From a virus (taxonomy: Duplodnaviria; Heunggongvirae; Uroviricota; Caudoviricetes), in IMG/VR virus record IMGVR_UViG_2537561977_000008: a DNA stretch of 14,425 nt. One strand, written 5' to 3'. This document shows positions 1 through 14,425 of this stretch, one piece after another. The notes under the pieces were generated by a model. It was given only the letters and a program-made list of their open reading frames with translations, was not told the origin of the DNA and ran no database searches. Position 1 is the first letter of the stretch, and every line of letters begins with the position of its first letter. Both the position numbers and the translations under genes were made by a program.

Positions 1-251
1 ACATCCACAATGACGCGCATTACGCCAGCCTGATGGCGGTTATTCGTGAAAAGGAAGAAACACTGAAACAACGCGTGATCCGCGCGCTGGCGGGTTTTTC
101 GGGTTACGGGCGGGTGATGGTTGTCGGTGGCGGGGCGGAGATTGTGGCACCCGCTATCCGCGAAGCCTGCGGAGTTAATGCGACTTTCATCGCGGACGGG
201 GTGCCACAGTTTGCTCTGGTTAATGGGCTGTACGCAATGGACAAGGAGTAA
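1..251 (+). CDS. parM: ParM/StbA-like actin-type plasmid segregation ATPase, C-terminal fragment (5' end lies outside the window)
   Basis: The reading frame is open from the window edge (codon phase from nt 3) to TAA at 249-251. The C-terminus (VMVVGGGAEIV ... FALVNGLYAMDKE) resembles the C-terminal adenosine motif and LVNGMY tail of R1 ParM/StbA as recalled. It is followed directly by a ParR-like gene. Confidence 0.55.
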   Translation, partial: IHNDAHYASLMAVIREKEETLKQRVIRALAGFSGYGRVMVVGGGAEIVAPAIREACGVNATFIADGVPQFALVNGLYAMDKE

Positions 252-255
252 ACCA

Positions 256-567
256 ATGACGACACCAACCAGACGGATAAGTTTCTATCTGAAGCCCGCC
301 GCCGTCAAGAACGAAGGCGAAGCATGCGCCTGGCTGGACAGCCTTACACCAGAAGCCCGCAAAAGTGGTCAACGCGTGGCTTTTCTGGCCGGGCTGGCAC
401 TACTGAAAATGAATCCGGCAGAGGCTTACCGACTGGCTGCATGGGCTGATGATGAGGCGTTATCAGTGACACAAACCAGGACAGAACGCCCCGCGTCACA
501 GCCAGTATCAACCGCACAGATAACCAGTCAGATGGCCGGAAATATCCGGGCGTTATTTCCCGAATAA
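256..567 (+). CDS. parR: ParR-like partition adaptor (centromere-binding protein), 103 aa
   Basis: ATG at 256 with AGGAG 7 nt upstream. The protein (RISFYLKPAAV...LDSLTPEARKSGQRVAFLAGLALL...NIRALFPE) is co-linear with recalled R1 ParR (RTIAFKLNPDV...LDSIPQGERSRLNRAALTAGLALY...NILRSLFPKE). The 148-aa ORF in the track (121-567) is an upstream extension in the same reading frame that overlaps the parM stop region; the real start is 256. Confidence 0.55.
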   Translation: MTTPTRRISFYLKPAAVKNEGEACAWLDSLTPEARKSGQRVAFLAGLALLKMNPAEAYRLAAWADDEALSVTQTRTERPASQPVSTAQITSQMAGNIRALFPE

Positions 568-572
568 CACAA

Positions 573-596
573 CATCAGGGCGCATCCGCCCTGATG
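573..596 (+). terminator. Perfect 10-bp inverted repeat (CATCAGGGCG-catc-CGCCCTGATG) downstream of parR; candidate intrinsic terminator or operator palindrome
   Basis: Read directly from the sequence: a 10-bp GC-rich stem with a 4-nt loop, followed by ACTTTAA (a weak U-tract). It lies between the parR stop (567) and the next start (631). Confidence 0.35.
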
Positions 597-630
597 ACTT
601 TAACCCGGGAGCATAAACAAGGGGGACACA

Positions 631-963
631 ATGCAACACATTGACAGAGAAAAAGCGCAGCGACTGATTGAGCGGATGGAGGCGCTGGCGAAAGAAGAAA
701 ATGTCAACATCCAAAAAATAGCTGAATGTGGCCAGATAGTTCTTCGTCGTGAAAAAGACCTCAAACAACTGATGTCTGGCGAAACCAGCAAAACATGGAC
801 TTCAGGCGAGAAGACGGTTTACTGCAGTTTCTGCAATAAATCCCAGTACGAAGTCACAAAGGTGATTGCCGGACCGTCTGTTTACATCTGCAATGAGTGC
901 GTGGATTTGTGCAATGAAATTATCAGGAAAGAAGTGACAGACAAAAAGGAAAAAAACGCATGA
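631..963 (+). CDS. Small protein (110 aa) with a C-terminal ClpX-type C4 zinc-binding domain; no AAA+ module
   Basis: ATG at 631 preceded by AAGGGGGA. The C-terminal half ([39 protein letters not shown]) is near-identical in motif to the N-terminal zinc-binding domain of ClpX ([39 protein letters not shown], recalled). The N-terminal 60 aa is an unrelated charged helical region. Confidence 0.7.
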
Positions 964-1187
964 ACAGAAAACAGAAACAAGAGTTGAAATACTTCTTACG
1001 TAAAGAAATTGCCAGGCTGGAAGATGTGGAATCTCAATCATCAGAAATTCCGTTCGGAATGGATATCAACGACGCCCGTATGCTTCAGGCATACCGCATA
1101 GCCCTGGCTGCACTACAGAGAAAAGCACCAGACATCAACCCTCGCCAACAGGAAGAACAGGAACAGCACAAAGGAGGCAACCAGTGA
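960..1187 (+). CDS. Hypothetical small helical protein, 75 aa
   Basis: ATG overlaps the upstream stop (ATGA at 960-963), indicating translational coupling. Charged, helical composition; no recognisable family. Confidence 0.45.
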
Positions 1188-1423
1188 GTAATTCAGCACG
1201 ACTACAGCTTGGTTTTTCACCGCTATCAAAAACCATCGTGTTGGCAAAAATGCGTGACTTAGGAGACGGAACAAAACGCCGCGTAGGAAATGATCGCGGT
1301 CGCGATGTAACCAACGGGGCCGCTCAACTCGTTTGGCATCTAGTCATGGCAGAAGGCGGTGAAATTAATTGGGAGCTGGATGATGGTTCTCGTATGATTT
1401 TGAGGGCCGAGAAGAGTAAATAG
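1184..1423 (+). CDS. Hypothetical protein, 79 aa
   Basis: GTG start overlaps the upstream stop (GTGA at 1184-1187) with a strong AAGGAGG 6 nt upstream. No family recognised. Confidence 0.45.
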   Translation: MSNSARLQLGFSPLSKTIVLAKMRDLGDGTKRRVGNDRGRDVTNGAAQLVWHLVMAEGGEINWELDDGSRMILRAEKSK

Positions 1424-1437
1424 CTCAAGGGGGATTA

Positions 1438-1623
1438 ATGCTAAATGATGATGAAGAAGAGCTGCTTATGCAGGAATGGTCGCTCGGTGATTATGATAAT
1501 GGTGAAAATGGGTGCCCGCATTGTGGCCGTTATCGTTTATGTATCTGCCAGAATGGAAAACACAGATGTGAAAAGTGCAATTGGTCTCCGGAACTTAATG
1601 ACTACGTGCCGATCGAGTGGTAG
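1438..1623 (+). CDS. Small Cys-rich putative zinc-ribbon protein, 61 aa
   Basis: ATG at 1438 with AGGGGG upstream. Acidic N-terminus followed by CPHC-x5-CxC-x6-CxxC. Last gene of the four-gene operon. Confidence 0.45.
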   Translation: MLNDDEEELLMQEWSLGDYDNGENGCPHCGRYRLCICQNGKHRCEKCNWSPELNDYVPIEW

Positions 1624-1663
1624 AGGTAAGTCACACTAGGTGTTTTTTAGTTGATTTTATAAA

Positions 1664-1762
1664 TGCACAATAGTGCACAAATTTGCACAATTTTTTTGAA
1701 CGACTTTTTACCCTTCCGGCCTGCGTGGCGGCTGGATCCGTCAAGGATCCGTGCGTGCACAA
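1664..1762. repeat. Four direct copies of TGCACAA in helical phase; candidate protein-binding array (terminase/cosB-like or operator)
   Basis: Copies at 1664-1670, 1674-1680 and 1684-1690 are spaced exactly 10 bp apart; a fourth at 1756-1762 is 72 bp (about 7 turns) further on. The region is AT-rich and non-coding, and also contains a GGATCCGT direct repeat (1734-1741, 1745-1752) and a near-palindromic A7-CGCGC-T5 (1761-1777). Confidence 0.5.
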
Positions 1763-2063
1763 AAAAACGCGCTTTTTCTACGAGCAGGTGACGGGGGAAC
1801 AGCCCGCGTTTCAGGGGGTAAATAGCATTCCCTGAACGATGTCGCAGAGATACAACAGAATGGCTGTATTTCTCACGCTGAGCGTGAAAAAGACGTGAGG
1901 GCTTTTGATTTGATGGGGTGAAAGGTAAGGCCGTCAAAATCGCACTGAGACGGCGAGAATATGCAGTCAACGAGGTGGGATTGCGTAAGAGTCTGACTGT
2001 CGATGATGGCAATCAGCAGGAAAGCGTCGTGAAATTATCTGACTGATACAGGAGCTGGAGAGT

Positions 2064-2088
2064 CGGGGCATAAATTTTTTATGCCCCG
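2064..2088. terminator. Stem-loop (CGGGGCATAAA-ttt-TTTATGCCCCG) 27 nt downstream of the portal stop
   Basis: Read directly: 11-bp stem with a 3-nt loop. No clean U-tract on either strand, so it may be an RNA-stabilising hairpin, a terminator for the leftward Q transcript, or part of cos. Confidence 0.3.
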
Positions 2089-2114
2089 GCGAAGCAGCAG
2101 ACAAGCGAAGCGCG

Positions 2115-3134: not shown

Positions 3135-3159
3135 GCGCACTTTTTTATTTTTCTGCTCA

Positions 3160-4912
3160 TCAGAACTCCATAACCGTGAAACGCTCGTTTTCTCCTTCGC
3201 CGCCAATCGGTTCGTTAATGACAGCAAGCATGGTTGCCCACGCAAGGTCGCCGTGGCTGATCCCCCTCGCGCGGTCCGTTTCGTAAGTGATAAAACCGCC
3301 CGGTGTTTTCACCTTACGCACGGCGTTAAAGGCCGCAACCAGCTCGCGTTCGGCGCGATCGTATTCCCACCGCCCGGCACGCATTATTTGCAGCATTTTC
3401 AGTACCAGCGACCGTTTTGATGACAGCGTGAAGGTGTAAGGGATGGCGGCGGGAAAAAACCGTTTCACTATCTGATAGACGGCATCCCCGTGCCCGCCCG
3501 TCGCATCAATGCCGATGTGTTCCACGTTGTAGCGATACGTGAACTCTTCAATAACTCTGGCCTGCTCTTCAAAATTCCAGCCCCTGAACGCGTCGCGTCT
3601 CCACCGTTCTGAAACGACTACCAGGAACAGCCGGAGGAACCACCACGGACACAGCGCCGCTGTCGCCGTTACCACTGCTGCCGTTTGCGTCATACCCAAT
3701 CCATACCGGACGATTCCCCATCGGGCGGGGGGCAAAGGGTTTCCAGTCTTTCCAGTCGTCGTATCCGTCAACACCGCAGCCAATCAGGATATTCAGGTTA
3801 AATGCCGATTCCCCTTCGCGGACAAACTCACACATATAGAGATTGCGGAACTCGTCTTCGGTGTTTTCATCACGAATTTCATCAATATCGGTGTGTTTCC
3901 AGCCGTGATTAACCACATCTTCCAGCGTGACAATTTGCCGCCACGTCCGGTCAGGGCAGATAAGCCCGTTATGCAGCGTTTTCCAGTCCACAGAAAAACG
4001 CTGGCGTTTATGCGCGGCCTTTTTCTCGTTCCAGCGGTCGCCGTTCCAGTAGGCGTATGCCTCGTGCGTTTCGGTGGATGGCGTGGAGAAGCAGGTGCGC
4101 CGCAGTCCGCTGAGGGTTGCCATAGCGCCAGCCACCTTGCGCAGTTCAGCAAAGCGACTGACCCAGAAAAATTCATCAAAATAAAAATTGCCCGTGTAAG
4201 ATTGCGCCGTCGCAGCAGAAGTGCCGAGAAAATGCATCTCTGCGCCGTTGGAGAGGATGATTTTATCGCCCCCTTTCAGCTCCACATCGACTTCAGCCGC
4301 GGCCTTCTGAATAATGCTTTTAAACTGGAACGCCTGACGACGCGACGCAGACAAAAAAATCTGGTTACACTGGTAAGGTTGTGCCACATCGTCACGCAGC
4401 GCCATCAGCAGTGCTTCCTGTGCAAAATACCAGGTCGCCCCAATCTGTCGGGATTTCAGGATCATCCTGTTACGTATCCCGGCTTCCCTGCAAAGCGTCA
4501 GGGAGTCAAACCAGCCCCGCTGATGCCACTCCAGCCTGCTGATGATTTTTTCCCGCAGTGCGGCAATCTGTTCCGGCGTGAAATGATTTTTGAGTTTTTT
4601 CGCCCGGCCTTTCTTTCCTGTGGCCGTCGCATCCGGCTGGCCATCATGCAGTTTTTTAAGCTGCCGGGTCAGCAGGTCTATTTCCTTAAAGTCACCACCT
4701 GTTTTATTCTGTTTTTCAGTAAGCTGGATGAGGCGCGCATCGATGGACTGCGTGACACGCTGCACGGGTGGCGTTTCATCCCACTGGTCGCGTTTTTTCC
4801 ACGCATAAATCGTGTTCGGGTTTATTCCCATCAGACGTGATATTTCTGCGGGCGGATAACCCTGCCAGTAAAGTTGCCGCGCACGCTGGCGCACAAAAGC
4901 GTCCTGAATCAT
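3160..4912 (-). pseudogene. P: Terminase large subunit (P2 gpP-like ATPase/nuclease), split into two frames by a 1-nt indel in a homopolymer run
   Basis: The N-terminal 447-aa ORF (3569-4912) matches recalled P2 P (ILKSRQIGATWYF, NQIFLSAS, FLGTSAATAQSY, FSTPST, NRPVWIGYD). The C-terminal 207-aa ORF (3160-3783, other frame) carries the rest (YNVEHIGIDATG...HGDLAWATM...MEF). The frames switch at the CCCC run on the + strand at 3581-3584. Confidence 0.85.
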
Positions 4913-5073
4913 TGCTCCCCCTGAGTAATTACAGGAAGATTACCCGCGCGCGAAACCGTTCTCCTTAACCCCCTGTTCTGGCCGTTTTCTTACAACAAAA
5001 GCCCTTTGTATCAGCCTGTTACGCTTTGCCATCATGACTGAAGAACCAGTCAGAGGGGCAAAAACTATGGCTA
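4913..5073. promoter_or_regulatory. Divergent intergenic region between P (leftward) and O (rightward); expected site of activator-dependent late promoters
   Basis: 161 bp between divergent morphogenesis operons, as in P2 where the Ogr-dependent P and O promoters lie here. A partial dyad TGT-N15-ACA is at 4974-4994. No clear sigma70 -35 element, consistent with activator dependence. Confidence 0.4.
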
Positions 5074-5904
5074 ATGAAAAAAGAGACATCCCGCAAAAAG
5101 TTTCGCGTGGCTGTCTCCGGATCAACTGTTGATGGCCGTGAAATCAGTCCGGTGCATCTGCGTGAAGCCGCCGAGAACTTCAACCCGGATGTTTACGCTG
5201 CCCGCGTGAACGTTGAGCACTATCTCTCGCCATGCCCGTCAAGCGAATTTTCCGCAATGGGCGATGTCACCGCACTGAGTACGGAAGACATTACGGAAGG
5301 TCCGCTGGCCGGACGTACTGCGCTGTATGCAGAAATCGAACCGACCGAGCGCATGAAGCAGCTTGTCGCGGACGGCAAGAAAATCTATTCCAGTATCGAA
5401 CTGCACCCGCAGTTCTCCGTTAACGGGCGCGCCTATCTGGTCGGGCTGGCGATGACCGACACCCCGGCAAGCCTGGGCACTGAGCGCCTGAAATTCACGG
5501 CACAGCAACGTCAGGCGGTGATGACGTTCAACAGTATCCAGGGTGAAGCACCGCTTATCTCCGAAGCCATCGAGTCTGAAATCATCGAAATGGCAGAACA
5601 ACGCCAGGAAGAAGGCACCCAGTGGTTTAACCGCGTAATGGGGATTATTGGTCGTGGCCGCAAAGCGGATGACGCCAGTTTCTCCCGTATTCAGGAAGCG
5701 GTGGAAAGCGTCGCAACGTCACAGGCCGACATTATCGACCGTTTTAATGCGCTGGAAACACGCCATCAGCAGGACAGCCAGAAAATCACTTTACTGACCA
5801 CGGAGCTGACAGCACTGAAGGAAAAACTGCGCACGCAGGACGGCGATCCGCAGAACCGGTTCACCGCAACGGGCGCAGCCTCCGACCAGCTGGCTGACTT
5901 CTGA
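5074..5904 (+). CDS. O: Capsid scaffolding protein (P2 gpO-like), 276 aa
   Basis: The N-terminus (KKFRVAVSGSTVDGREISPVHLREAAENFNP ... YLVGLAMTDTPASLGTE) is co-linear with recalled P2 gpO. The ATG at 5067 is out of frame and stops after 20 codons, so 5074 is the start. Confidence 0.85.
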   Translation: MKKETSRKKFRVAVSGSTVDGREISPVHLREAAENFNPDVYAARVNVEHYLSPCPSSEFSAMGDVTALSTEDITEGPLAGRTALYAEIEPTERMKQLVADGKKIYSSIELHPQFSVNGRAYLVGLAMTDTPASLGTERLKFTAQQRQAVMTFNSIQGEAPLISEAIESEIIEMAEQRQEEGTQWFNRVMGIIGRGRKADDASFSRIQEAVESVATSQADIIDRFNALETRHQQDSQKITLLTTELTALKEKLRTQDGDPQNRFTATGAASDQLADF

Positions 5905-5927
5905 TAAGACAAAGGAGCAAATTTTTT

Positions 5928-6977
5928 ATGAATCTGGTGATGTCAGATATTACCCGCAACAAGCTGGGTTGCTATATGGCGCAGCAGGCGTCGCTTAACA
6001 ATATCCCGGTTTCTGCACTGGTATCGCGATTTACCGTGGAACCTGCGGTGCAGCAACGTTTTGAAAACGCCTCAAAGGATAGCACCGAACTTACAAAAAA
6101 TTAACGTGATCGGCGTGACCGACCAGAAAGGCGAAAAATCCTCCTGGACACCACAGGACCGATTGCACGCACAAATACCAGTTATGACGGAACAAAACGC
6201 CGTAACCCGAATAACGTGGTTGATCTGAAAAACCGCAAATACCAGTGCGAACAGGTGAGCTACGACACGTTTATTTCGTATCCGCAGCTTGATGCCTGGT
6301 CGGCACACAGCGATTTTCAGTCCCGCATCAGCGCACAGATTGCCCGACAGGTGGCACTTGACCGCATCATGATCGGTTTCAACGGCACATCTCACGCGGA
6401 TGAGTCCAACTTCAGCACCAACAAGCTGCTTCAGGACGTTAACGTGGGGTGGCTGGAGCACATCAGAACCAATGCCAGCGAGCGCGTAATGAATGACGTG
6501 ACGCTGACTTCCCGCAACATGGACAACACCGTGGCGCACGCGGGTAAATACGCGAACCCTGATGCACTGGTACAGGACGCGCGCTCATCTCTGCTGGATG
6601 AATGGCACAAGGAAGCTGACGACCTCGTGGTGATTATGGGGCGCAACCTGTTTAACTCGCTGCGTCTGCCAGTGCTGAACAGCATCAGCGGCCAGAATCC
6701 CAATGCGGAATTACTTGCCGGGCAGCTCATCCTGTCATCGCGCACCATTGGCGGGCTGGGTGTGTTCCTTGCACCGTTCTTCCCGGATGCAACGATGCTG
6801 ATCACCTCATTCAACAACCTGTCGATTTACTGGCAGAAAGGTTCAATGCGTCGTCTGATGAAAGACGAACCGGAATACAACCGCATCGCCACCTACCAGT
6901 CCATCAATGACGCTTATGTCGTTGAAGACTATGGCAAGTGCGCGATGGTCACTGGCCTGAAGTTCGCCGACAGCTAA
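5928..6977 (+). pseudogene. N: Major capsid protein (P2 gpN-like) with two compensating 1-nt indels in A-runs 38 nt apart
   Basis: AAGGAG sits 10 nt before ATG 5928. Frame 0 reads MNLVMSDITRNKL...FTVEPAV then hits TAA at 6102-6104. The +1 frame carries INVIGVTDQKGEK (P2: INIVPVSEMKGEK), and frame 0 resumes with ILLDTTGPIARTNTS...KYQCEQ... through to 6977. The shifts are at A6 (6095-6100, one A too many) and A5 (6134-6138, one A too few). Confidence 0.85.
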
Positions 6978-6986
6978 TCAACTCAC

Positions 6987-7005
6987 GGCGGGCATCATGC
7001 CCGCC
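6987..7005 (+). terminator. GC-rich hairpin (GGCGGGCA-tca-TGCCCGCC) immediately after the major capsid gene; candidate partial terminator or mRNA stabiliser
   Basis: Read directly: 8-bp stem with a 3-nt loop, 10 nt after the capsid stop, with no U-tract. A common arrangement for keeping capsid mRNA above downstream terminase mRNA. Confidence 0.4.
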
Positions 7006-7022
7006 TGTAACGGAGAGAAAAA

Positions 7023-7828
7023 ATGATTACTCCTGCACAGCAACACTGGCAGAACGTGATGGCACAGCGCGCAGGCCGGGCGAATGAAGGTGTGGACCAC
7101 GCCGCGCGTACCGCGCATGAAGAGGTGCTGTATCGTCTGCGTCTGGCACAGGCCCGGCTTAAGGGCGTACAGGCCAGAAGCGCGAAAGCCGACATCAAAA
7201 AAGCGTTGTTGCCGGACTTTTCCGGCTGGATTGAGGGAACGCTGGAGGCTGACGCGGGCAACAGGACGAAGTGATTGCCACGCTGATGGTGTGGGCGATT
7301 GACTGCGGCGATCTTCCGCTTGCGCTGCGTATTGGTGCGTATGCGGTCCGTCACAACCTCATCATGCCGGATAACTTTGGCCGTACTGCTGCCACAGTGC
7401 TGACCGAAGAAATCTGCAATCCGGTACTGACGCAGGCCGGGACGGATGCCGACGCGGATTTGTCCGTCTTTATCGAACCACTGGACACACTTTGGGAAAT
7501 TGTCGCCAACCAGGATATGCCGGACGAAGTGCGCGCCAAATTATGCAAGGCGTGCGCCTTTGCCCGCCGTGGCCTGAGCGATGCGGACAGCATGGCCTCA
7601 TCACTGAAGCTGCTGCGCGAAGCGATGCATCTGAACCAGAACGCAGGTGTGAAACGCGAGATTGCAACCCTTTCCCGCGCCCTGAAAAAAGCCGATTCCG
7701 CAGCCGCACCAGAAGACGCCAGCGCACAGCAGGCGCAGGACGAAAGCAGCGAAAGTAAAAAGACAACGCGGAAGCCTGCAACACGAAAACCACCGCGACG
7801 CAGAAGGCGAAGCGCGGTTAACGACTGA
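7023..7828 (+). pseudogene. M: Terminase small (endonuclease) subunit (P2 gpM-like), frameshifted by a 1-nt deletion
   Basis: GGAG is 7 nt before ATG 7023. ORF 7023-7274 (MITPAQQHW...LEADAG) continues in the -1 frame as QQDEVIATLMVWAIDCGDL...DMPDEVRAKL... to 7828. This is co-linear with recalled P2 M (MTSPAQRHM...GKGAQDDILMTVMLW...ADMPDEVRAKL). The shift is at the GGG run at 7256-7258. Confidence 0.8.
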
Positions 7829-7837
7829 CCCCGTCAG

Positions 7838-7908
7838 CGGGCGGCGTGCGCGGTGTTCCGGTTTGGCTCCGTGACCGTTTACACCGCGCACCCACCGCCC
7901 GATTTTTT
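7838..7908 (+). terminator. Large interrupted stem-loop followed by a T6 tract between M and L; candidate intrinsic terminator or attenuator
   Basis: Left arm CGGGCGG-c-GTGCGCGGTG (7838-7855) pairs with right arm CACCGCGCAC-cca-CCGCCCG (7882-7901): 17 bp with one internal bulge and a 26-nt loop. It is followed by ATTTTTT (7902-7908), then the RBS GGAG for L. Confidence 0.45.
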
Positions 7909-7922
7909 CAGGAGTGAACCCC

Positions 7923-8418
7923 ATGAGTATGGTTGCCAGAACTGAACCCGGCCCCGCAGAGGACGACATCACCGACACCGAAGATGGCGATACCCGTATT
8001 TCAGCGGGTGCATTCTGGCCGGATATTGTGCTGCGCGAGCTGCGTCTGGCGGTACGACGTGCCGGGCCGCGTGACCACCTCCCGCCTGCTGCATACCGCC
8101 ACCGGGGCCGTGGCACACGTTACCCGCGAGCCGGAAGCATGGCAGCAGGAACAGCAGGCGGCTGGCCATCAGACGCTGGCCGATGTTCCGGCACCCGTAA
8201 TTAACGGAGAAAGCGTCAATCTCTGGCACTGGCGCAATGCTGTTTATACCGCCACACGCGCCCTGATTCTGGAGCGTTACCGCGATGCGGACACAACGGA
8301 CAAGGGCGACCGCCGGGCGGACGCACTGGATATACAGACATCGGATTTGTGGCGCGATGTGAGCTGGGCCATCTCTGACATTCTGTGCCGCCCGCGAATC
8401 TTTGCGGAGTTGTGCTGA
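7923..8418 (+). pseudogene. L: Head completion/stabilisation protein (P2 gpL-like), frameshifted
   Basis: The N-terminal frame (…FWPDIVLRELRLAV) matches P2 L (FFPDIDPKRVRERMRLEQTV). The C-terminal two-thirds lies in the +1 frame (…LADVPAPVINGESVNLWHWRNAV...ERYRDADTTDKGDRRADALDIQTSDLWRDVSWAI...; P2: LADVPADDIDGESIKVFYYERAV...ERYRGVDATAKGDKKADSIDSTIDELWRDMRWAV). The frame switch is somewhere in 8050-8085. Confidence 0.75.
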
Positions 8419-8613
8419 TGAAAGTGAAGGCACTGGAAGGCGACACCGTGGATTCGCTCTGTTTCCGGTACTACGGCACGACGCAGGGCGTCACCGAAAA
8501 GGTGCTGGATGCCAACCCCGGACTCTGCCGACAGGTATTTCTGGAAGCCGGACAGGAGGTGGAAATGCCGGAGTCGGAGAAGAAAACAACGAGAGATGAT
8601 ACAGCTATGGTAA
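8418..8613 (+). CDS. X: Tail protein X (P2 gpX-like); as given it reads through in frame into the holin, and a 1-nt insertion in an A-run is suspected
   Basis: ATG 8418 overlaps the L stop (TGATG). MKVKALEGDTVDSLCFRYYGTTQGVTEKVLDANPGL matches recalled P2 X (MKTFALQGDTLDAICVRYYGRTEGVVETVLAANPGL). The expected C-terminus (…EMIQLW, stop TAA 8611-8613 overlapping the holin ATG) is in the +1 frame after the AAAA run at 8582-8585. Confidence 0.55.
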
Positions 8614-8909
8614 CAGGTTTTTTTCAGCGGGTGAGTGACTGGATCACCTTCTGGGCATCAGTCACAGCCACCACAATAGGCGTGATGACCATCAGTGAAA
8701 AAATCGCCCTTGCCGGGTTGTTACTCGGTTCTCTGTCTGCATTACATGCCTGGCGACATCGCCGCCTGATGGAAACCGCCATGCAGCGTCGCAATGAACT
8801 CATCGCCAGTATCCTGGCGCAGTCAGACGCACGGCCACTTCACGACAGTGAGCGTCAGGCTCTGAACATTCTGCGGGATAACGATACACATGATAAAGCT
8901 GCCCGTTAA
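8607..8909 (+). CDS. Class II holin (two TM segments; pinholin-like), about 100 aa
   Basis: ATG 8607 sits in an ATGGTAA overlap with the presumed X stop. There are two hydrophobic segments (WITFWASVTATTIGVMTI and IALAGLLLGSLSALHAW) followed by a highly charged C-terminal tail. It lies immediately upstream of a SAR-type endolysin. Confidence 0.6.
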   Translation: MVTGFFQRVSDWITFWASVTATTIGVMTISEKIALAGLLLGSLSALHAWRHRRLMETAMQRRNELIASILAQSDARPLHDSERQALNILRDNDTHDKAAR

Positions 8910-9456
8910 ACGTTACGCCGTAGCCGCCATTGTGGCGCTGGGGTTCTCCATTGCCCCTCACAAACTCCGGACCAGCCCGGAAGCGCAAATCCGCATTGCC
9001 ACATGGGAGGACTGTCGCGCAACGCCTTACCGGGATATTGCCGGGGTAATGACCGTGGGGTGCGGCTCGACCGGGCATGTGGAAAATCGTCTGTACACCG
9101 AAACGGAAGTCGCCGGGCGCTGGGTTAATGATATGCAACATGCAGAAAACTGCATAAATCAGAACTTCAGCGGCAACGCCATGCCACAGTCCGCGTTTGA
9201 GGCAATGACAGATGCCGCCTTTAATCTTGGATGCAGAAATCTTATGTGGTTCAGGGATAAGAACCGTAACTACCACCGCACCACTATCTGGAAACATGCA
9301 CAGGCGCACAACTGGCCTGACATGTGCAACAGACTGACTGACTTCGTGAACAGCGGCGGCGAACGCTCACAGGGACTGGTTAACCGTCGTACTGATTTTC
9401 GTGCATGGTGCTTACGTGACACCGGAGGCCAGTCAAGAAAGTGCGTTACATCCTGA
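8890..9456 (+). CDS. SAR endolysin, glycoside hydrolase family 24 (T4/lambda-R type lysozyme), 188 aa
   Basis: N-terminal signal-anchor-like hydrophobic stretch (YAVAAIVALGFSIA) followed by the GH24 catalytic signature E...D...T (ATWEDCRATPYRDIAGVMTVGCGSTGH). This is not the P2 gpK type. Confidence 0.8.
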   Translation: MIKLPVKRYAVAAIVALGFSIAPHKLRTSPEAQIRIATWEDCRATPYRDIAGVMTVGCGSTGHVENRLYTETEVAGRWVNDMQHAENCINQNFSGNAMPQSAFEAMTDAAFNLGCRNLMWFRDKNRNYHRTTIWKHAQAHNWPDMCNRLTDFVNSGGERSQGLVNRRTDFRAWCLRDTGGQSRKCVTS

Positions 9457-9908
9457 TGATGGCACTGACCGTCCTCACGCTGCTGACCATAACACTCTGG
9501 CAGACATTCAGACTGGGGCAGGAAGACGGACACAACCGTTATACACAGGCGCAACTGGACGATTACAGCCGGACCCTGAAAGAGGCCGGCACCATCATCA
9601 GCACCGCATCCGGTGTACTGCGTGACGTCATGACAGCGCGCCAGAACCGACAACAGGAAGGGGAAATCCGACGTGAACAGCTACGCAACGATATCACGAC
9701 AGATGCATGTGCCCGCGCTGTTCCTGACGCTCGCTTTACTGAGCGGTTGCACCAGCACGCAGAACGCGTCCGCGCCGCCGCCGTCGTTCCGTTTCATCCC
9801 GGAAGGGCTGACCGCCCCCGTACTTCCCCCGCCGTTTCCGGTGACGCCATCATGGGGAAACATCGGGATATGGAGCGACAGCCTCATGGACGCACTGGAA
9901 ACCTGTAA
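9441..9908 (+). CDS. i-spanin (Rz/LysB-like inner-membrane spanin subunit)
   Basis: N-terminal TM helix (ILMMALTVLTLLTITLW) followed by a charged periplasmic region. The o-spanin gene is embedded in its 3' half in another frame. The start could be GTG 9441 (GGAGG upstream) or ATG 9456. Confidence 0.6.
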   Translation: MRYILMMALTVLTLLTITLWQTFRLGQEDGHNRYTQAQLDDYSRTLKEAGTIISTASGVLRDVMTARQNRQQEGEIRREQLRNDITTDACARAVPDARFTERLHQHAERVRAAAVVPFHPGRADRPRTSPAVSGDAIMGKHRDMERQPHGRTGNL

Positions 9909-9993
9909 CGCCGATAAGCGGGCCATTGAATTACTGGAACAGCGCAGGCTGCAACGACTGAACAACGAGGACAACAACCATGCTGAAAACTGA
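9673..9993 (+). CDS. o-spanin (Rz1/LysC-like outer-membrane lipoprotein), overlapping the i-spanin gene
   Basis: Lipoprotein signal with lipobox (FLTLALLSGC), a Pro-rich mature region, and the typical overlapped architecture inside and extending past the i-spanin gene. An alternative start is ATG 9703. Confidence 0.65.
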   Translation: MNSYATISRQMHVPALFLTLALLSGCTSTQNASAPPPSFRFIPEGLTAPVLPPPFPVTPSWGNIGIWSDSLMDALETCNADKRAIELLEQRRLQRLNNEDNNHAEN

Positions 9994-10446
9994 TTCCCTG
10001 CGTGAAGCCATGACCCGTTCATGCCGGTGGTGTCATGCCAACCCGGAAAAATTCACCATTTTCGTGGAGAGCGGCAACATTGAAACGACCGGAGAAACCC
10101 CATCGTTTGTTTACCGCTATCAGATAGTGATGTTTGTCATGGATTACGCCGGAGAGCTGGACGACCTCACGCTGCCGCTGCTGGCGTGGTTATCCGAAAA
10201 TCAGCCACAGTTGTTGCTCAATCCGGAGCGTAATCAGGACATCAAATTTTCCGCCGTTATCAATGACGATGACAGCGCCGATCTCCTGTTTACGCTCCCC
10301 CTGCGGGAACGCGTTCGCATCACGCGCAGCAGTCAGGGCACACCGCAGGCAGAACACCTGCCGGAGCCAAAACCCCGCCTGCCCTCTTCCGAAGGCGACT
10401 GGTCGCATGTATTCCAGGATGTGACGTGGGGGAAAGCGATGGATAA
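9980..10446 (+). CDS. R: Tail completion protein R (P2 gpR-like); as given it reads through into S, probably because of a 1-nt deletion in a G5 run
   Basis: The N-terminus (MLKTDSLREAMT...KFTIFVESGNIETT...LPLLAWLSENQP) matches recalled P2 R. As given, the frame continues without a stop into the S-like sequence (one 364-aa ORF, 9980-11074). Adding one G to the run at 10428-10432 would end R at TAA 10444-10446, overlapping the S ATG (ATGGATAA). Confidence 0.6.
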
Positions 10447-11074
10447 GGCATTCACCCGCGTGGATGAAACCTTTGAGGCTATCCGCGACAGCCTGAATCA
10501 GCAGGCCATTAATAACATCGCCAGAAAGCTGGCACAGGATTTACGCCGCGCCCAGCAGGCGCGTATCCGGTCACAGAAAGCGCCGGACGGGACCGCATGG
10601 ACACCACGCAGACGCCGCGTAACCCGGATACAGGAGCGCATTCGCTTTATCTGGAATAACGAAGCACGCACGCTGAAAAACTGGCATCACGACACGGGGA
10701 AATACGGGCGAACCATCACCGGGTGGGATGAGGATAAAAACAATATCCGCACGTTTTACCGGGATGACATCGACCGTTTTCTGGAAATACGCACCCGGCG
10801 CATCAACCAGGACAGCACCAGGCGCGTCTCCATGTTCGTAAAACTGCGCACCGCCCGCTACCTGAAAGCCCGTGCAGATGCTTCCGGTGTGACGGTGGGT
10901 TACAGCGGCGTGGCCGCACGTATTGCACGCGTTCATCAGTTCGGTGAGCGCGATCAGGTTGCGCCGGGCATTTTCACCGATTACCCGGTACGTGAGCTGC
11001 TGGGTATCAGCCAGGCAGATGAGCGCCTGATTTATAACACGGTGCTGGGCAGGATTGCGGAGGCTGTACGATGA
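10439..11074 (+). CDS. S: Tail completion / virion morphogenesis protein S (P2 gpS-like)
   Basis: Internal ATG at 10439. The C-terminal region (…VGYSGVAARIARVHQFGERDQVAPG...YPVRELLGIS) is typical of the phage virion morphogenesis (gpS) family. The stop overlaps the V start (ATGA at 11071). Confidence 0.6.
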   Translation: MDKAFTRVDETFEAIRDSLNQQAINNIARKLAQDLRRAQQARIRSQKAPDGTAWTPRRRRVTRIQERIRFIWNNEARTLKNWHHDTGKYGRTITGWDEDKNNIRTFYRDDIDRFLEIRTRRINQDSTRRVSMFVKLRTARYLKARADASGVTVGYSGVAARIARVHQFGERDQVAPGIFTDYPVRELLGISQADERLIYNTVLGRIAEAVR

Positions 11075-11652
11075 GCGCAGAACTCATGCGACTGCTGAGC
11101 AATATCATCCGCACCGGGATCATCTCTGAAGTTGATGAGGAATCCTGGTGCGTGCGCGTTCGCAGCGGCGAACTGGAAACAGGCTGGCTGCGCTGGAACA
11201 CCACGCGCGCGGGAGACTTCAACGTGTGGTTTCCGCCATCACCAGGCGAACAGGTGGCAATTGCCTGCATCGGCGGCAACCCGGAAACCGCCATGATAAT
11301 CGGCAGCCTGTGGAGTGATGCCATTCCGGCACCCGGCAAAAGCCTGAAAGAAATCGTGGTCAGCGCGCCGGACGGCGCGGTGTTCCGCTACGACGCGGAC
11401 GCAGGCGCACTGAGCGCAAGCGGCATGAAAACGGCCACTTTGCAGGCATCCATCAGCGTGACACTGAACACGCCTGTCGTGGAATGCACAGACCTTCTGA
11501 GAACAGCGACGCTTGACGTCACAAAAGGGGGAACGATGAGCGGCAATATCACGCACAGCGGCGGCGATTTCACCTCAAACGGCATCACAGTGCATACGCA
11601 TAAGCACGGTGGCGTTAAAGGTGGCAGCGATTCGACAGGAGGCCCGCAGTGA
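11071..11652 (+). CDS. V: Baseplate assembly / spike protein V (P2 gpV-like), 193 aa
   Basis: IRTGIISEVDEE...FPPSPGEQVAIACIGG...KGGTMSGNITHSGGDFTSNGITVHTHKH matches recalled P2 V (IRTGIIVETD...APSVGEQVLILAVGG...KGGTMRGNIEHTGGELSSNGKVLHTHKH). Confidence 0.85.
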   Translation: MSAELMRLLSNIIRTGIISEVDEESWCVRVRSGELETGWLRWNTTRAGDFNVWFPPSPGEQVAIACIGGNPETAMIIGSLWSDAIPAPGKSLKEIVVSAPDGAVFRYDADAGALSASGMKTATLQASISVTLNTPVVECTDLLRTATLDVTKGGTMSGNITHSGGDFTSNGITVHTHKHGGVKGGSDSTGGPQ

Positions 11653-11999
11653 CAACCCGCTACACAGGAATGAACCCGGACGGGACGGGAAACCTGAACG
11701 ATATGGCGCACCTGAAACAGTCAGTCAGGGACATCCTGACCACCCCGCTGGCAAGCCGGGTTATGCGACGGGAATATGGCAGCCTTGTGCCTGATTTGAT
11801 TGACGAACCCATGAATAACACCACGCGTCTGCAATGCATGAGTGCTACCGTGATTGCACTGACACGATGGGAACCACGCATTGCCCTGAACGCCATCGAC
11901 GTTGTCTGGAAGGCAGGAGGCCACGCCGGGGTGACGCTGTCGGGCACTGTCATGCAGACCATGCAGAATGTTGAATTAACCATCACGCTGAGGGAGTAA
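11649..11999 (+). CDS. W: Baseplate protein W (P2 gpW / gp25-like), 116 aa
   Basis: GTG start overlaps the V stop (GTGA). Size and position between V and J match P2 W. Confidence 0.8.
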   Translation: MTTRYTGMNPDGTGNLNDMAHLKQSVRDILTTPLASRVMRREYGSLVPDLIDEPMNNTTRLQCMSATVIALTRWEPRIALNAIDVVWKAGGHAGVTLSGTVMQTMQNVELTITLRE

Positions 12000-12002
12000 A
12001 TC

Positions 12003-12899
12003 ATGCCTGCCGTTGACCTTTCCCAGTTACCGGAACCCGCCATCATCGCGGAGCCTGACTTTGAGGCAATTCTGGCTGACACAAAGGCCATGATGATTGC
12101 AGCTTATCCCGCCGAACAGCGTGAAGTCGTCTCCGCCGCACTGGAACTGGAATCGGAACCCCTGAACGTTATCGCTCAAACCATGTCGTTTCGTGAAATG
12201 CTGTTACGCCAGCGGGTCAATGAGGCCGCACGCGCCTGCATGTTGAGCCACAGCGCCGGAACAGACCTGGACAACCTCGCGGGCAATATGAACACAAAGC
12301 GCCTGGTTATCACTCCGGCAACGGATACCACCGACGTGGTGATGGAGAACGACACCTCGCTGAGACTGCGGGCGCAGCGGGCGTATGACGGCCTGAGTGT
12401 TGCAGGCCCGTCAGGCGCATACGAGTATTTTGCCCGCAGCGCCAGCGGTCTGGTGCGCGATGCGCGGGCCATCAGTCCGTCTCCGGCAAATGTGACGGTT
12501 TCCATCCTGTCCACTGAGGGCGACGGCACAGCAACGGAGGCGTTGCTTAATACCGTTCGCGCCGTTCTGAATGCAGAGGATACCCGCCCGGTGGCCGACC
12601 GCCTGACCGTACAGAGTGCCAGAATCGTGACATGGCGGCTGAATGCAAAACTGTACTTTTACCCCGGTCCGGAATCCGAACCTATTCTGGCTGCGGCTGA
12701 ATCGTCGTTCAGGAAGTGGCTGGCTGAGCAGGGGCTTATCGGTCAGGACGTGGCGTTGTCCGCCATTGCTGCCGCACTGCATGTGCACGGTGTGCAACGC
12801 GTGGAGATAATCGAACCCACACAGAATATGGCCATCAGCGACATACAGGCGGCGCGCTGTGAGTCATTCACCATCAGCGAAGGTGGGCGTAATGAGTAA
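12003..12899 (+). CDS. J: Baseplate assembly protein J (P2 gpJ-like), 298 aa
   Basis: AGGGAG RBS upstream. Size and synteny (V-W-J-I) match P2 J. Confidence 0.85.
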   Translation: MPAVDLSQLPEPAIIAEPDFEAILADTKAMMIAAYPAEQREVVSAALELESEPLNVIAQTMSFREMLLRQRVNEAARACMLSHSAGTDLDNLAGNMNTKRLVITPATDTTDVVMENDTSLRLRAQRAYDGLSVAGPSGAYEYFARSASGLVRDARAISPSPANVTVSILSTEGDGTATEALLNTVRAVLNAEDTRPVADRLTVQSARIVTWRLNAKLYFYPGPESEPILAAAESSFRKWLAEQGLIGQDVALSAIAAALHVHGVQRVEIIEPTQNMAISDIQAARCESFTISEGGRNE

Positions 12900-13422
12900 T
12901 TCACTGTTACCACCATCAGCCAGCAATTTCATGCGTTGTGCCGAAGCCGTCGGAACACGCATTACAGACATTCCGGCAGACCTCAACACGCTGTGGTCGC
13001 CGGACACCTGCCCGGTGCATCTGCTGCCTTATCTCGCCTGGGCGTTTTCCGTTGACCGCTGGGATCGCAACTGGCCGGAAGAGACAAAGCGACAGGTGAT
13101 TCGTGATGCATGGCTGATACACCGACACAAAGGAACCATCAGCGCCCTGCGACGGGCCATTGAGCCGCTGGGATACCTCATTCGCGTGTCTGAGTGGTGG
13201 GAGTTCAACGGCGAACCCGGAACATTCAAGATTGATGTTGGCACGCTGGACAGTGGCGTGACGGAGGAAATGTATCTGGAAATGGAGCGGTTGATTGCTG
13301 ATGCCCGCCCGGTCAGCCGCCACATGACAGGGCTGAATATCATTCAGGAGATTCAGGGAGATATTTTCGCGGCAGCAGCAACTTACGACGGTGAAGTCAT
13401 TACCATTTATCCGGACGATTAA
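12892..13422 (+). CDS. I: Tail/baseplate protein I (P2 gpI-like), 176 aa
   Basis: Start is taken at ATG 12892, overlapping the J stop (MSNSLLPPSASNF...), rather than the longer in-frame ORF start at 12859. Size and synteny match P2 I. Confidence 0.8.
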   Translation: MSNSLLPPSASNFMRCAEAVGTRITDIPADLNTLWSPDTCPVHLLPYLAWAFSVDRWDRNWPEETKRQVIRDAWLIHRHKGTISALRRAIEPLGYLIRVSEWWEFNGEPGTFKIDVGTLDSGVTEEMYLEMERLIADARPVSRHMTGLNIIQEIQGDIFAAAATYDGEVITIYPDD

Positions 13423-13424
13423 GC

Positions 13425-14425
13425 ATGAGTACCACAACACGAAAATTTAAAACCATTATCACCGATACGGGTGCAAAAAATTAGCGCAGGCAACCGCGCC
13501 AGATGGGAAACCTGTCCGCCTGACACATATGGCCGTGGGTGACGGCGGCGGTACTTTACCCACGCCAGACAGTAAGCAGACCCGTCTTGTGCATGAGGTG
13601 TGGCGACATACCGTTAATCGCGTCACCCTGGACGCAACACATCAGAACCACATTATTGCGGAGCTGGTTATTCCTCCTGAAACGGGCGGATTCTGGATCC
13701 GGGAAATTGGTGTGTTTGATGAGCACGGCGATTTGATCGCGGTAGGCAATACTGCCGAAAGTTACAAGCCAACCGTTGCCGAAGGATCCGGACGTGCACA
13801 AACATTTCGCACCATTCTGACCGTATCCAGCACTGCCACTGTGGCGCTTACCGTGGATAACACCATGGTGATGGCCACAGTGAATTACGTGGATGACAAA
13901 CTGAAAGAGCATGAACAGTCACGACGTCACCCGGACGCCTCGCTGACCGCAAAAGGCCTTGTCCAGCTCAGCAACGCCACCAACAGCACGTCTGAAACGC
14001 TGGCAGCGACACCAAAAGCCGTTAAGGCAGTAATGGATGAAACGAACAAGAAAGCCCCATTAAACAGCCCGGCACTGACCGGAACGCCAACAACACCAAC
14101 TGCGCGACAGGGAACGAATAATACCCAAATCGCAAGCACGGCTTTCGTTATGGCTGCGATTGCCGCACTTGTAGACTCTTCGCCTGATGCACTGAACACA
14201 CTGAACGAGCTGGCGGCGGCGCTGGGCAACGACCCGAATTTTGCGACCACCATGACTAACGCGCTTGCGGGTAAGCAACCGAAAGATGCCACTCTGACGG
14301 CGCTGGCGGGGCTTGCTACTGCGGCAGACAGGTTTCCGTATTTTACGGGGAATGATGTCGCCAGCCTGGCAACCCTGACAAAGTCGGGCGGATATTCTTG
14401 CGAAATCGACCGTTGCCGCCGTTAT
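13425..14425 (+). pseudogene. H: Tail fibre protein H (P2 gpH-like), N-terminal part; 3' end outside the window; frameshifted by homopolymer deletions
   Basis: ATG 13425 gives MSTTTRKFKTIITDTGAKN then stops at TAG 13482-13484. The -1 frame continues as LAQATAPDGKPVRLTHMAVGDGGG...IAELVIPPETGGFW...HEQSRRHPDASLTAKG...LAATPKAVK... to the window end, closely matching recalled P2 H. The shift is at the A6 run at 13475-13480. The last ~30 nt show two more single-base losses (ACAAAG and GGGCGG versus the expected ACAAAAG and GGGCGGG). Confidence 0.8.

Follow-up and report, generated by a model that had tools for sequence, protein, structure and literature searches.

Why should a phage that integrates into its host's chromosome keep a plasmid-type segregation machine, under selection, beside its replication gene? 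The question is raised by the first 567 nt of a 14,425-nt stretch of Caudoviricetes DNA (IMG/VR record IMGVR_UViG_2537561977_000008; the whole stretch is called the window below). These nucleotides are the distal part of a type II (R1-like ParMRC) DNA-segregation module, comprising the 3' end of parM, which encodes an actin-like ATPase, and all of parR, which encodes its adaptor. An earlier prediction had offered three settings for such a pair next to P2-like late genes: a phage-plasmid, a P2-like remnant embedded in a plasmid, or a partition cassette captured as cargo. We find that the window comes from an integrated P88-like prophage and that phages of this group carry the module as a fixture of their early/replication region; on the whole we consider it probable that it serves filament-based positioning of their genomes. 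The genes themselves are already known, because RefSeq names their products "plasmid segregation protein ParM" and "plasmid partitioning/stability family protein," PHROGs has both as partition proteins, and the P88 and PhiSM genomes include them. Searches of the literature found no work on the function of parMR in P2-like phages.

The parMR pair and its prophage context

The parM frame (frame 3) is open from the window edge at position 3 and closes with a TAA stop at 249-251. Its 82-residue translation, which ends ...LVNGLYAMDKE*, matches the ParM C-terminal domain (Pfam PF21523; E = 1.7e-27; profile positions 80-159 of 159) and PHROG 691, "partition protein." The ATG of parR at 256 lies four bases past the parM stop, and the same 4-nt gap was found in 12 of 12 aligned loci. 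Because the AAGGAG ribosome-binding site of parR overlaps the last parM codons, we regard the two genes as a tightly coupled pair. ParR residues 6 to 76 match PF10784 (Plasmid_stab_B; E = 1.6e-24), and the protein matches PHROG 2515, also "partition protein" (1.1e-58); a search of NCBIfam returned ParM/PRTRC matches below threshold only, and none for ParR. Translations and profile searches thus bear out the original prediction of a ParM C terminus followed by a ParR-type adaptor, and both proteins fall into partition families.

Window positions 1 to 2100 are 100% identical to the chromosome of Escherichia coli FDAARGOS_943 (NZ_CP065615.1), and the whole window is 99.8% identical to it; positions in this source genome around the window are given below as L003 coordinates. 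The full parM gene at L003 19292-20251 encodes 319 amino acids with both an StbA_N domain (2.1e-82) and a ParM C-terminal domain (1.3e-68). The protein matches the structure of plasmid R1 ParM (1mwk; E = 6.8e-93), and a full-length BLASTP alignment shows 47% identity with R1 ParM. The segments DDGSTNIK, DLGGTTLD, and GGGAE are conserved, and the phosphate-binding and adenosine motifs are intact. The original prediction had allowed that the DNA upstream might hold no ParM N-terminal domain, a doubt that falls away because the missing N terminus is present in the source genome. The locus therefore encodes, as R1-type ParMRC systems do, an actin-fold ATPase with both domains and its nucleotide-binding motifs, and directly after it a small adaptor homologous to ParR/StbB.

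The DNA upstream of the window is chromosomal. Annotation of NZ_CP065615.1 places gene A, Cox, a C-type repressor, and an integrase before the pair, then pdxB as the flank, with P2 late genes on the other side. Gene A encodes a 940-amino-acid P2-type replication endonuclease (PF05840; 1.2e-129) and ends 76 nt upstream of parM. The order is gene A, the 76-nt gap, parM, the 4-nt gap, parR, variable small genes, and then the portal and terminase genes. The P2 late genes downstream are those for portal, large terminase, scaffold, capsid, small terminase, lysis, and tail. Contrary to the original proposal, the module stands apart from these late genes: about 1.55 kb, holding four or five small open reading frames (ORFs) and a conserved noncoding stretch, separates the end of parR (567) from the stop codon of the portal gene (2115).

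Most similar among phage records are P88, PhiR44_2, PhiSM, and other members of Xuanwuvirus, at 96 to 97.5% identity over the shared parts; for P88, megablast gave 96.5% identity over a shared 74% of window 1-2100. Gene order as in P88, of the P2 type (int, C, cox, and gene A, then Q, P, O, N, M, and the tail genes), and this DNA similarity place the element in the P88-like group (Xuanwuvirus, Peduoviridae, the P2 family). PhiSM, whose ParM is 99.4% identical to the one described here, is a temperate phage shown by experiment to be active; its integration site in E. coli K-12 is a 17-bp sequence at the 5' end of pdxB (PMC6456863). We are virtually certain of the identity of parMR and of its prophage context.

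Upstream palindromes, expression, and ParR architecture

The original prediction placed the parC centromere upstream of parM, outside the window, and a candidate was found there. Two copies of a 42-nt direct repeat lie 73 bp apart, each containing a 20-bp palindrome with the consensus ACGGGATT-N4-AATCCCGT. The first bases of the palindromes are 127 and 54 nt upstream of the parM ATG, and both offsets and the 73-bp spacing are identical in 16 of the 16 loci with this parM. Among these loci the arms are conserved and the 4-nt spacer varies. The first palindrome falls within the final codons of gene A. P88, with a genome of 35.8 kb, contains exactly two instances of the motif, where 0.11 would be expected, and the 42 kb around the window also contains two. 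This pattern is the one expected for adaptor-binding sites, and we propose the pair of palindromes as a candidate parC.

More distant phages show the same arrangement in part. In a Plesiomonas phage two GCGGGACAAC...CCC repeats occupy this position with a spacing of 72 bp, and its ParR begins TRRISFYLNP, compared with TRRISFYLKP here; in Serratia and Enterobacter phages ParR begins NRKISFYLKP and a different repeat pair lies upstream. As a separate observation, a TTAATCAA box just upstream of the parM ribosome-binding site is kept in P88-like, Plesiomonas, and Hafnia phages (L003 19268-19275; in two further loci, L021 6441-6448 and L022 6976-6983) despite ParM identities of just 62 to 63%, and it may be a -10 element or a binding site. 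A resemblance between the A/C-rich upstream region and the R1 iterons was also considered and is left as a lead.

Between gene A and parM, a consensus scan found no plus-strand terminator-like site and no sigma-70-like promoter. Because there is neither a terminator nor a clear sigma-70 promoter in this interval, parMR is probably transcribed by read-through from the early operon and would be silent in a repressed lysogen. On the distal side, a perfect inverted repeat 6 nt past the parR stop, which scores as terminator-like on the minus strand only, probably marks the end of the parMR unit.

The R1 ParR sequence, taken from an IncFII plasmid locus, belongs to the same Pfam family, PF10784 (2.6e-30), as does IncL/M ParR; pairwise BLASTP of ParR against R1 ParR gave 34% identity over 56 residues of the N-terminal domain (E = 2e-8). 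Residues R6, R7, I8, F10, Y11, L12, K13, and P14 are invariant across 22 ParR homologues with identities down to 52%, and R6, F10, and P14 are invariant as far as R1 and IncL/M ParR. At the other end, N96, I97, F101, and P102 are invariant in the 22 homologues (motif N-I-x-x-x-F-P), and N96 with a K-N-x-x-x-L/F-F/I pattern is common to the C termini of R1 and IncL/M ParR. From this conservation, RRISFYLKP is presumed to be the DNA-reading strand of a ribbon-helix-helix domain, and by analogy with the R1 system the NIRALFPE helix is presumed to bind ParM.

An AlphaFold model of the ParR monomer, built from the 22-sequence alignment, is of low confidence (mean predicted local distance difference test [pLDDT] score, 57). 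Residues 1 to 19 are unstructured in it; helices span 20-29, 32-52, and 54-61, and a further, C-terminal helix (86-100) follows a disordered linker. This predicted layout is compatible with a ribbon-helix-helix adaptor without proving one. A sequence search of the Protein Data Bank (PDB) with ParR found no match even at E = 10.

Between its invariant ends, the center of ParR exists in at least three allelic forms that are 52 to 57% identical, whereas the adjacent ParM is 98 to 100% identical. This contrast points to a recombination junction, or to diversifying pressure, inside parR (window about 300-540). We also observed that in many E. coli genomes the 99% match covers window 1-310 and is lost beyond it, so that parR is a mosaic.

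Proposed role and competing explanations

Our preferred explanation is that ParR, bound to the upstream palindromes, couples the circular phage genome to ParM filaments; for this mechanism in particular we see about an even chance. ParR dimers would bind the two palindromes, the conserved C-terminal helix of ParR would capture the ends of ParM-ATP filaments, and filament growth would push or position circular copies of the phage genome during the extrachromosomal phase. The module would act after infection and before integration, after excision, and during gene-A-driven replication; an integrated prophage in a repressed lysogen would need no partition, and parMR would be silent there. The broader proposition, that an R1-type actin filament machine with a minimal two-palindrome centromere is a core function of widespread integrating P2-like phages, we put forward only tentatively.

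Several observations weigh against this explanation. In the window's own element each palindrome has one right-arm mismatch, only two sites were found, compared with the ten iterons of R1 parC, and the second palindrome is also terminator-like on the minus strand. The promoter scan was a simple consensus test, so that parMR may yet have a promoter of its own or be expressed in the lysogen. For the presumed ribbon-helix-helix fold of ParR, Foldseek comparison of the low-confidence monomer with the PDB gave nothing below E = 5. In a neighbor-joining tree, a single origin of the phage-associated ParMs received bootstrap support of 41 of 100. The late genes of the window carry homopolymer indels, so that this copy could be defective if the indels are real. 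Finally, the authors of the PhiSM study list the gene only as a "fitness" factor (PMC6456863).

The first alternative is that a plasmid partition cassette has entered the variable stretch separating gene A from the portal gene and rides there as passive cargo or a relic with no phage role. The slot is indeed variable, as the partial sharing of window 1-2100 by the closest phages illustrates, and it is the position at which P2 carries accessory genes such as tin and old. The cassette, however, lies on the conserved side of this region at its fixed distance from gene A. Of 1,372 carrier genomes, 1,287 (94%) have an intact gene A/parM junction, the exceptions looking like deleted remnants, and the gene A-parM-parR spacing is unchanged in loci whose ParR is just 52 to 57% identical. 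Within the P88-like group none of 12 parM copies is disrupted; mean dN (nonsynonymous divergence) is 0.005 and mean dS (synonymous divergence) 0.049, and the dN/dS ratio of about 0.1 indicates that parM is under purifying selection.

The relatives of ParM also speak against passive cargo. A protein search with full-length ParM showed a gap between matches of at least 92% identity, in the P88-like group, and matches of at most 63%. The four examined at 54 to 63% belong to P2-like prophages of Plesiomonas, Hafnia, Serratia, and Enterobacter; in each of these parM has gene A on one side and the portal gene on the other, and a gene for a PF10784 protein comes after it. Two examined at about 50% belong to a Rep3/ParA plasmid and to a Tra-gene element resembling an integrative and conjugative element (ICE). 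The best plasmid ParM outside embedded prophages, of IncL/M type, is 52.6% identical, and in a neighbor-joining tree the phage-associated ParMs form two groups outside the plasmid cluster. Judged by these comparisons, the cassette is a lineage-fixed part of the replication region and not recent cargo. The earlier suggestion of captured cargo holds only in an ancient sense; recent capture is contradicted by the intact junction, the distance to any plasmid ParM, and the recurrence of the arrangement in four genera. As an account of the module today, passive cargo is unlikely.

A second alternative is that the module has been repurposed: ParR would be mainly a transcriptional regulator, or the pair would destabilize incoming related phages or plasmids, in exclusion or defense. 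Plasmid ParR proteins also repress their own promoter, P2 carries exclusion genes in the region bordering this position, and the pattern of an allelic ParR center beside a constant ParM could reflect conflict or incompatibility. Nevertheless, no PADLOC defense model matched ParM, ParR, or the five neighboring ORFs at an E value of 0.01 or better; the ParM nucleotide-binding and ParR C-terminal motifs are conserved as in a working filament-adaptor pair; and the DNA-reading N terminus and its sites stay constant across the ParR alleles. We therefore give repurposing little credence.

A third reading, that the P88-like element is normally a low-copy extrachromosomal phage-plasmid with ParMRC as its partition system, as in phage D6, is very unlikely in light of where the genes occur. 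Window 1-600, used as the query for par DNA, was found in 1,284 of 5,426 complete E. coli genomes, with 1,423 places on chromosomes and 2 on plasmids; for a query across the gene A/parM junction the corresponding figures were 1,532 and 2. Among 50,697 phage records, the matches from tblastn with ParM were confined to 14 P88-like records and D6, a P1-like plasmid prophage whose ParM is 47.8% identical, in agreement with the original statement that the pair is absent from canonical P2- and 186-type phages. Relatives of the parMR-bearing P2-like phages also occur in Salmonella and Citrobacter.

Apart from D6, the phage-plasmid reading draws on one record, NZ_CP148288.1, a 34,461-bp circular "plasmid" from a cat E. 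coli isolate that is a complete P88-like genome with parMR. This circle carries the same integrase (WP_000023401.1) as the window's element and no plasmid replication gene, and for these reasons it looks like an excised or replicating phage genome; it is either such a genome caught in assembly or a rare plasmid-like state. An autonomous extrachromosomal replicon is likewise not apparent in the window's element, in which gene A is the only replication gene, an integrase, C, and Cox are present, and the flank is chromosomal pdxB, the gene where PhiSM lysogens are also integrated (PMC6456863).

That a P2-like remnant lies embedded in a plasmid that supplies the partition genes has a negligible probability. 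Seven PLSDB plasmid records do match par DNA, but in the three whose annotation was inspected (an IncC plasmid with an embedded P88-like prophage, an IncHI2A record with a P88-like prophage and pheA/tyrA, and the circular NZ_CP148288.1) parMR lies inside the P88-like genome, next to gene A, and for the window itself the chromosomal match and flanks led us to reject it. Because of the chromosomal counts, the flanks, and these inspected records, we conclude that the element is an integrated prophage, neither a phage-plasmid nor a plasmid remnant, contrary to two of the three settings first proposed.

Separately, a scan of GTDB species genomes returned four loci only, two of them probably from contaminated assemblies: contigs of a Vagococcus sp. 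and of Fredinandcohnia humi encode ParR at 93 to 96% identity, most likely through enterobacterial contamination.

Neighboring features and comparison with known systems

The coordinates of the module and of neighboring features are collected in Table 1. After parR come a ClpX-type zinc-finger protein, two small ORFs (one for a DUF7446 protein), the conserved noncoding stretch, and the late genes.

Table 1. Features of the parMR locus and its surroundings (window positions unless marked L003)
Feature	Coordinates	Strand	Basis or remark
42-nt direct repeat, first copy	L003 19149-19190		contains the first 20-bp palindrome
42-nt direct repeat, second copy	L003 19222-19263		contains the second 20-bp palindrome
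3' end of parM	1-251	+	last 82 of 319 codons; rest of gene upstream of window
AAGGAG ribosome-binding site of parR	243-248	+	7 nt before ATG; read from sequence
parR (stbB-type adaptor)	256-567	+	103 codons plus stop; Pfam, PHROG, BLASTP
RRISFYLKP, parR codons 6-14, presumed DNA-reading N-terminal strand	271-297	+	conservation
NIRALFPE, parR codons 96-103, presumed ParM-binding C-terminal helix	541-564	+	conservation, R1 analogy
Perfect 10-bp inverted repeat with 4-nt loop, CATCAGGGCG-GATG-CGCCCTGATG	573-596	none	6 nt past parR stop
110-amino-acid zinc-finger protein	631-963	+	PF06689, 6.8e-18; PHROG 6797, 2.1e-58
DUF7446 protein	1184-1423	+	PF24233, 9.6e-16
Three TGCACAA copies	1664-1690		starts at 1664, 1674, and 1684; exact 10-bp spacing

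The zinc-finger protein, which has a C-terminal ClpX-type C4 zinc finger and no AAA+ module, directly follows parR in many P88-like prophages; our guess is that it serves as a decoy or adaptor for host ClpX. DNA of the DUF7446 gene also occurs in unrelated phages, at 91% in Yersinia phage vB_YpM_39 and at 83% in Escherichia phage records of roughly 100 kb (CMS-2020a and PhiR41_1), and the segment from roughly 1190 to 1660 is missing from most P88-like relatives, being the variable cargo part of the region. The three TGCACAA copies open the conserved noncoding stretch (1664-2100), which is not parC, because it is common to P2-like phages without ParM (e.g., phage 500465-2); it may have a packaging or regulatory function near cos. 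A search for the 19-mer cohesive end of the P2/186 type, allowing up to 2 mismatches, had no match; no cos was located, and the original placement of the module beside cos is thus not borne out.

The window differs from NZ_CP065615.1 by 9 substitutions and 13 short indels (about 10 in homopolymers), all after 3147 (3147-14389). Owing to an extra A at 3571, the large terminase gene, which RefSeq has intact (3161-4912), is divided here into two ORFs, 3160-3783 and 3569-4912. The indels look like long-read assembly error in a near-identical genome, the alternative being real prophage decay.

If our explanation of the module is right, cytoskeletal positioning of mobile-element DNA outside plasmids, which has been demonstrated to date in a single Corynebacterium prophage and a single ICE family, would extend to a very common group of E. 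coli prophages. The parMR-carrying group is present in about a quarter of complete E. coli genomes and is easy to manipulate. In practice, ParM and ParR matches are poor evidence that a contig is a plasmid or a phage-plasmid.

The archetype of the module is ParMRC (parA/stb) of plasmids R1 and NR1. Beyond the ParM identity and the shared ParR family described above, the two have in common the order of parM then parR, a C-terminal K-N-x-x-x-L/F motif in the adaptor, and repeated sites upstream of parM. They differ in that the module here resides in an integrated P2-like prophage, after a rolling-circle replication gene and with no plasmid replicon. R1 parC consists of two blocks of five A/C-rich iterons around a promoter, whereas here there are two 20-bp palindromes, one of them in a coding region, and no promoter of the module's own is evident.

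Among phages, D6 is the sole record outside the P88-like group with such a ParM, of the StbA type, but it is a 91-kb P1-like plasmid prophage with an obvious partition role and is not P2-like. The P2-like prophages of Plesiomonas, Hafnia, Serratia, and Enterobacter share the slot between gene A and the portal gene and the PF10784 partner, with a ParM that is 54 to 63% identical; the Plesiomonas phage also has the two-site arrangement with its 72-bp spacing. Their ParR proteins are longer (116 to 134 amino acids), gene A and parM are separated by up to two additional genes, and the Serratia and Enterobacter loci have different repeat sequences.

The closest functional precedent is AlpAC of the Corynebacterium glutamicum prophage CGP3. 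There, an integrated prophage encodes an actin-like protein and an adaptor whose binding site lies upstream of the operon and which connects circular phage DNA with the filaments; the genes are induced early and are needed for efficient phage replication (PMC4446434). AlpAC, which is experimentally supported, belongs to a Gram-positive host and an unrelated prophage, and its actin-like protein is distant; the present module is known from its sequence. SrpMRC of the SXT/R391 ICEs is a type II partition locus on another normally integrated element; its centromere precedes the ParM-like gene, and the locus, whose expression is confined to the period around excision, stabilizes the transient circular form (PMC4489591). 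It differs in being carried by a conjugative element rather than a phage and in forming an operon with int under SetCD control, and SrpR has no recognizable domain, whereas ParR here is a clear PF10784 member. If it works as we propose, the parMR module of P88-like prophages would be the counterpart of AlpAC and SrpMRC in a tailed phage of Gram-negative bacteria.

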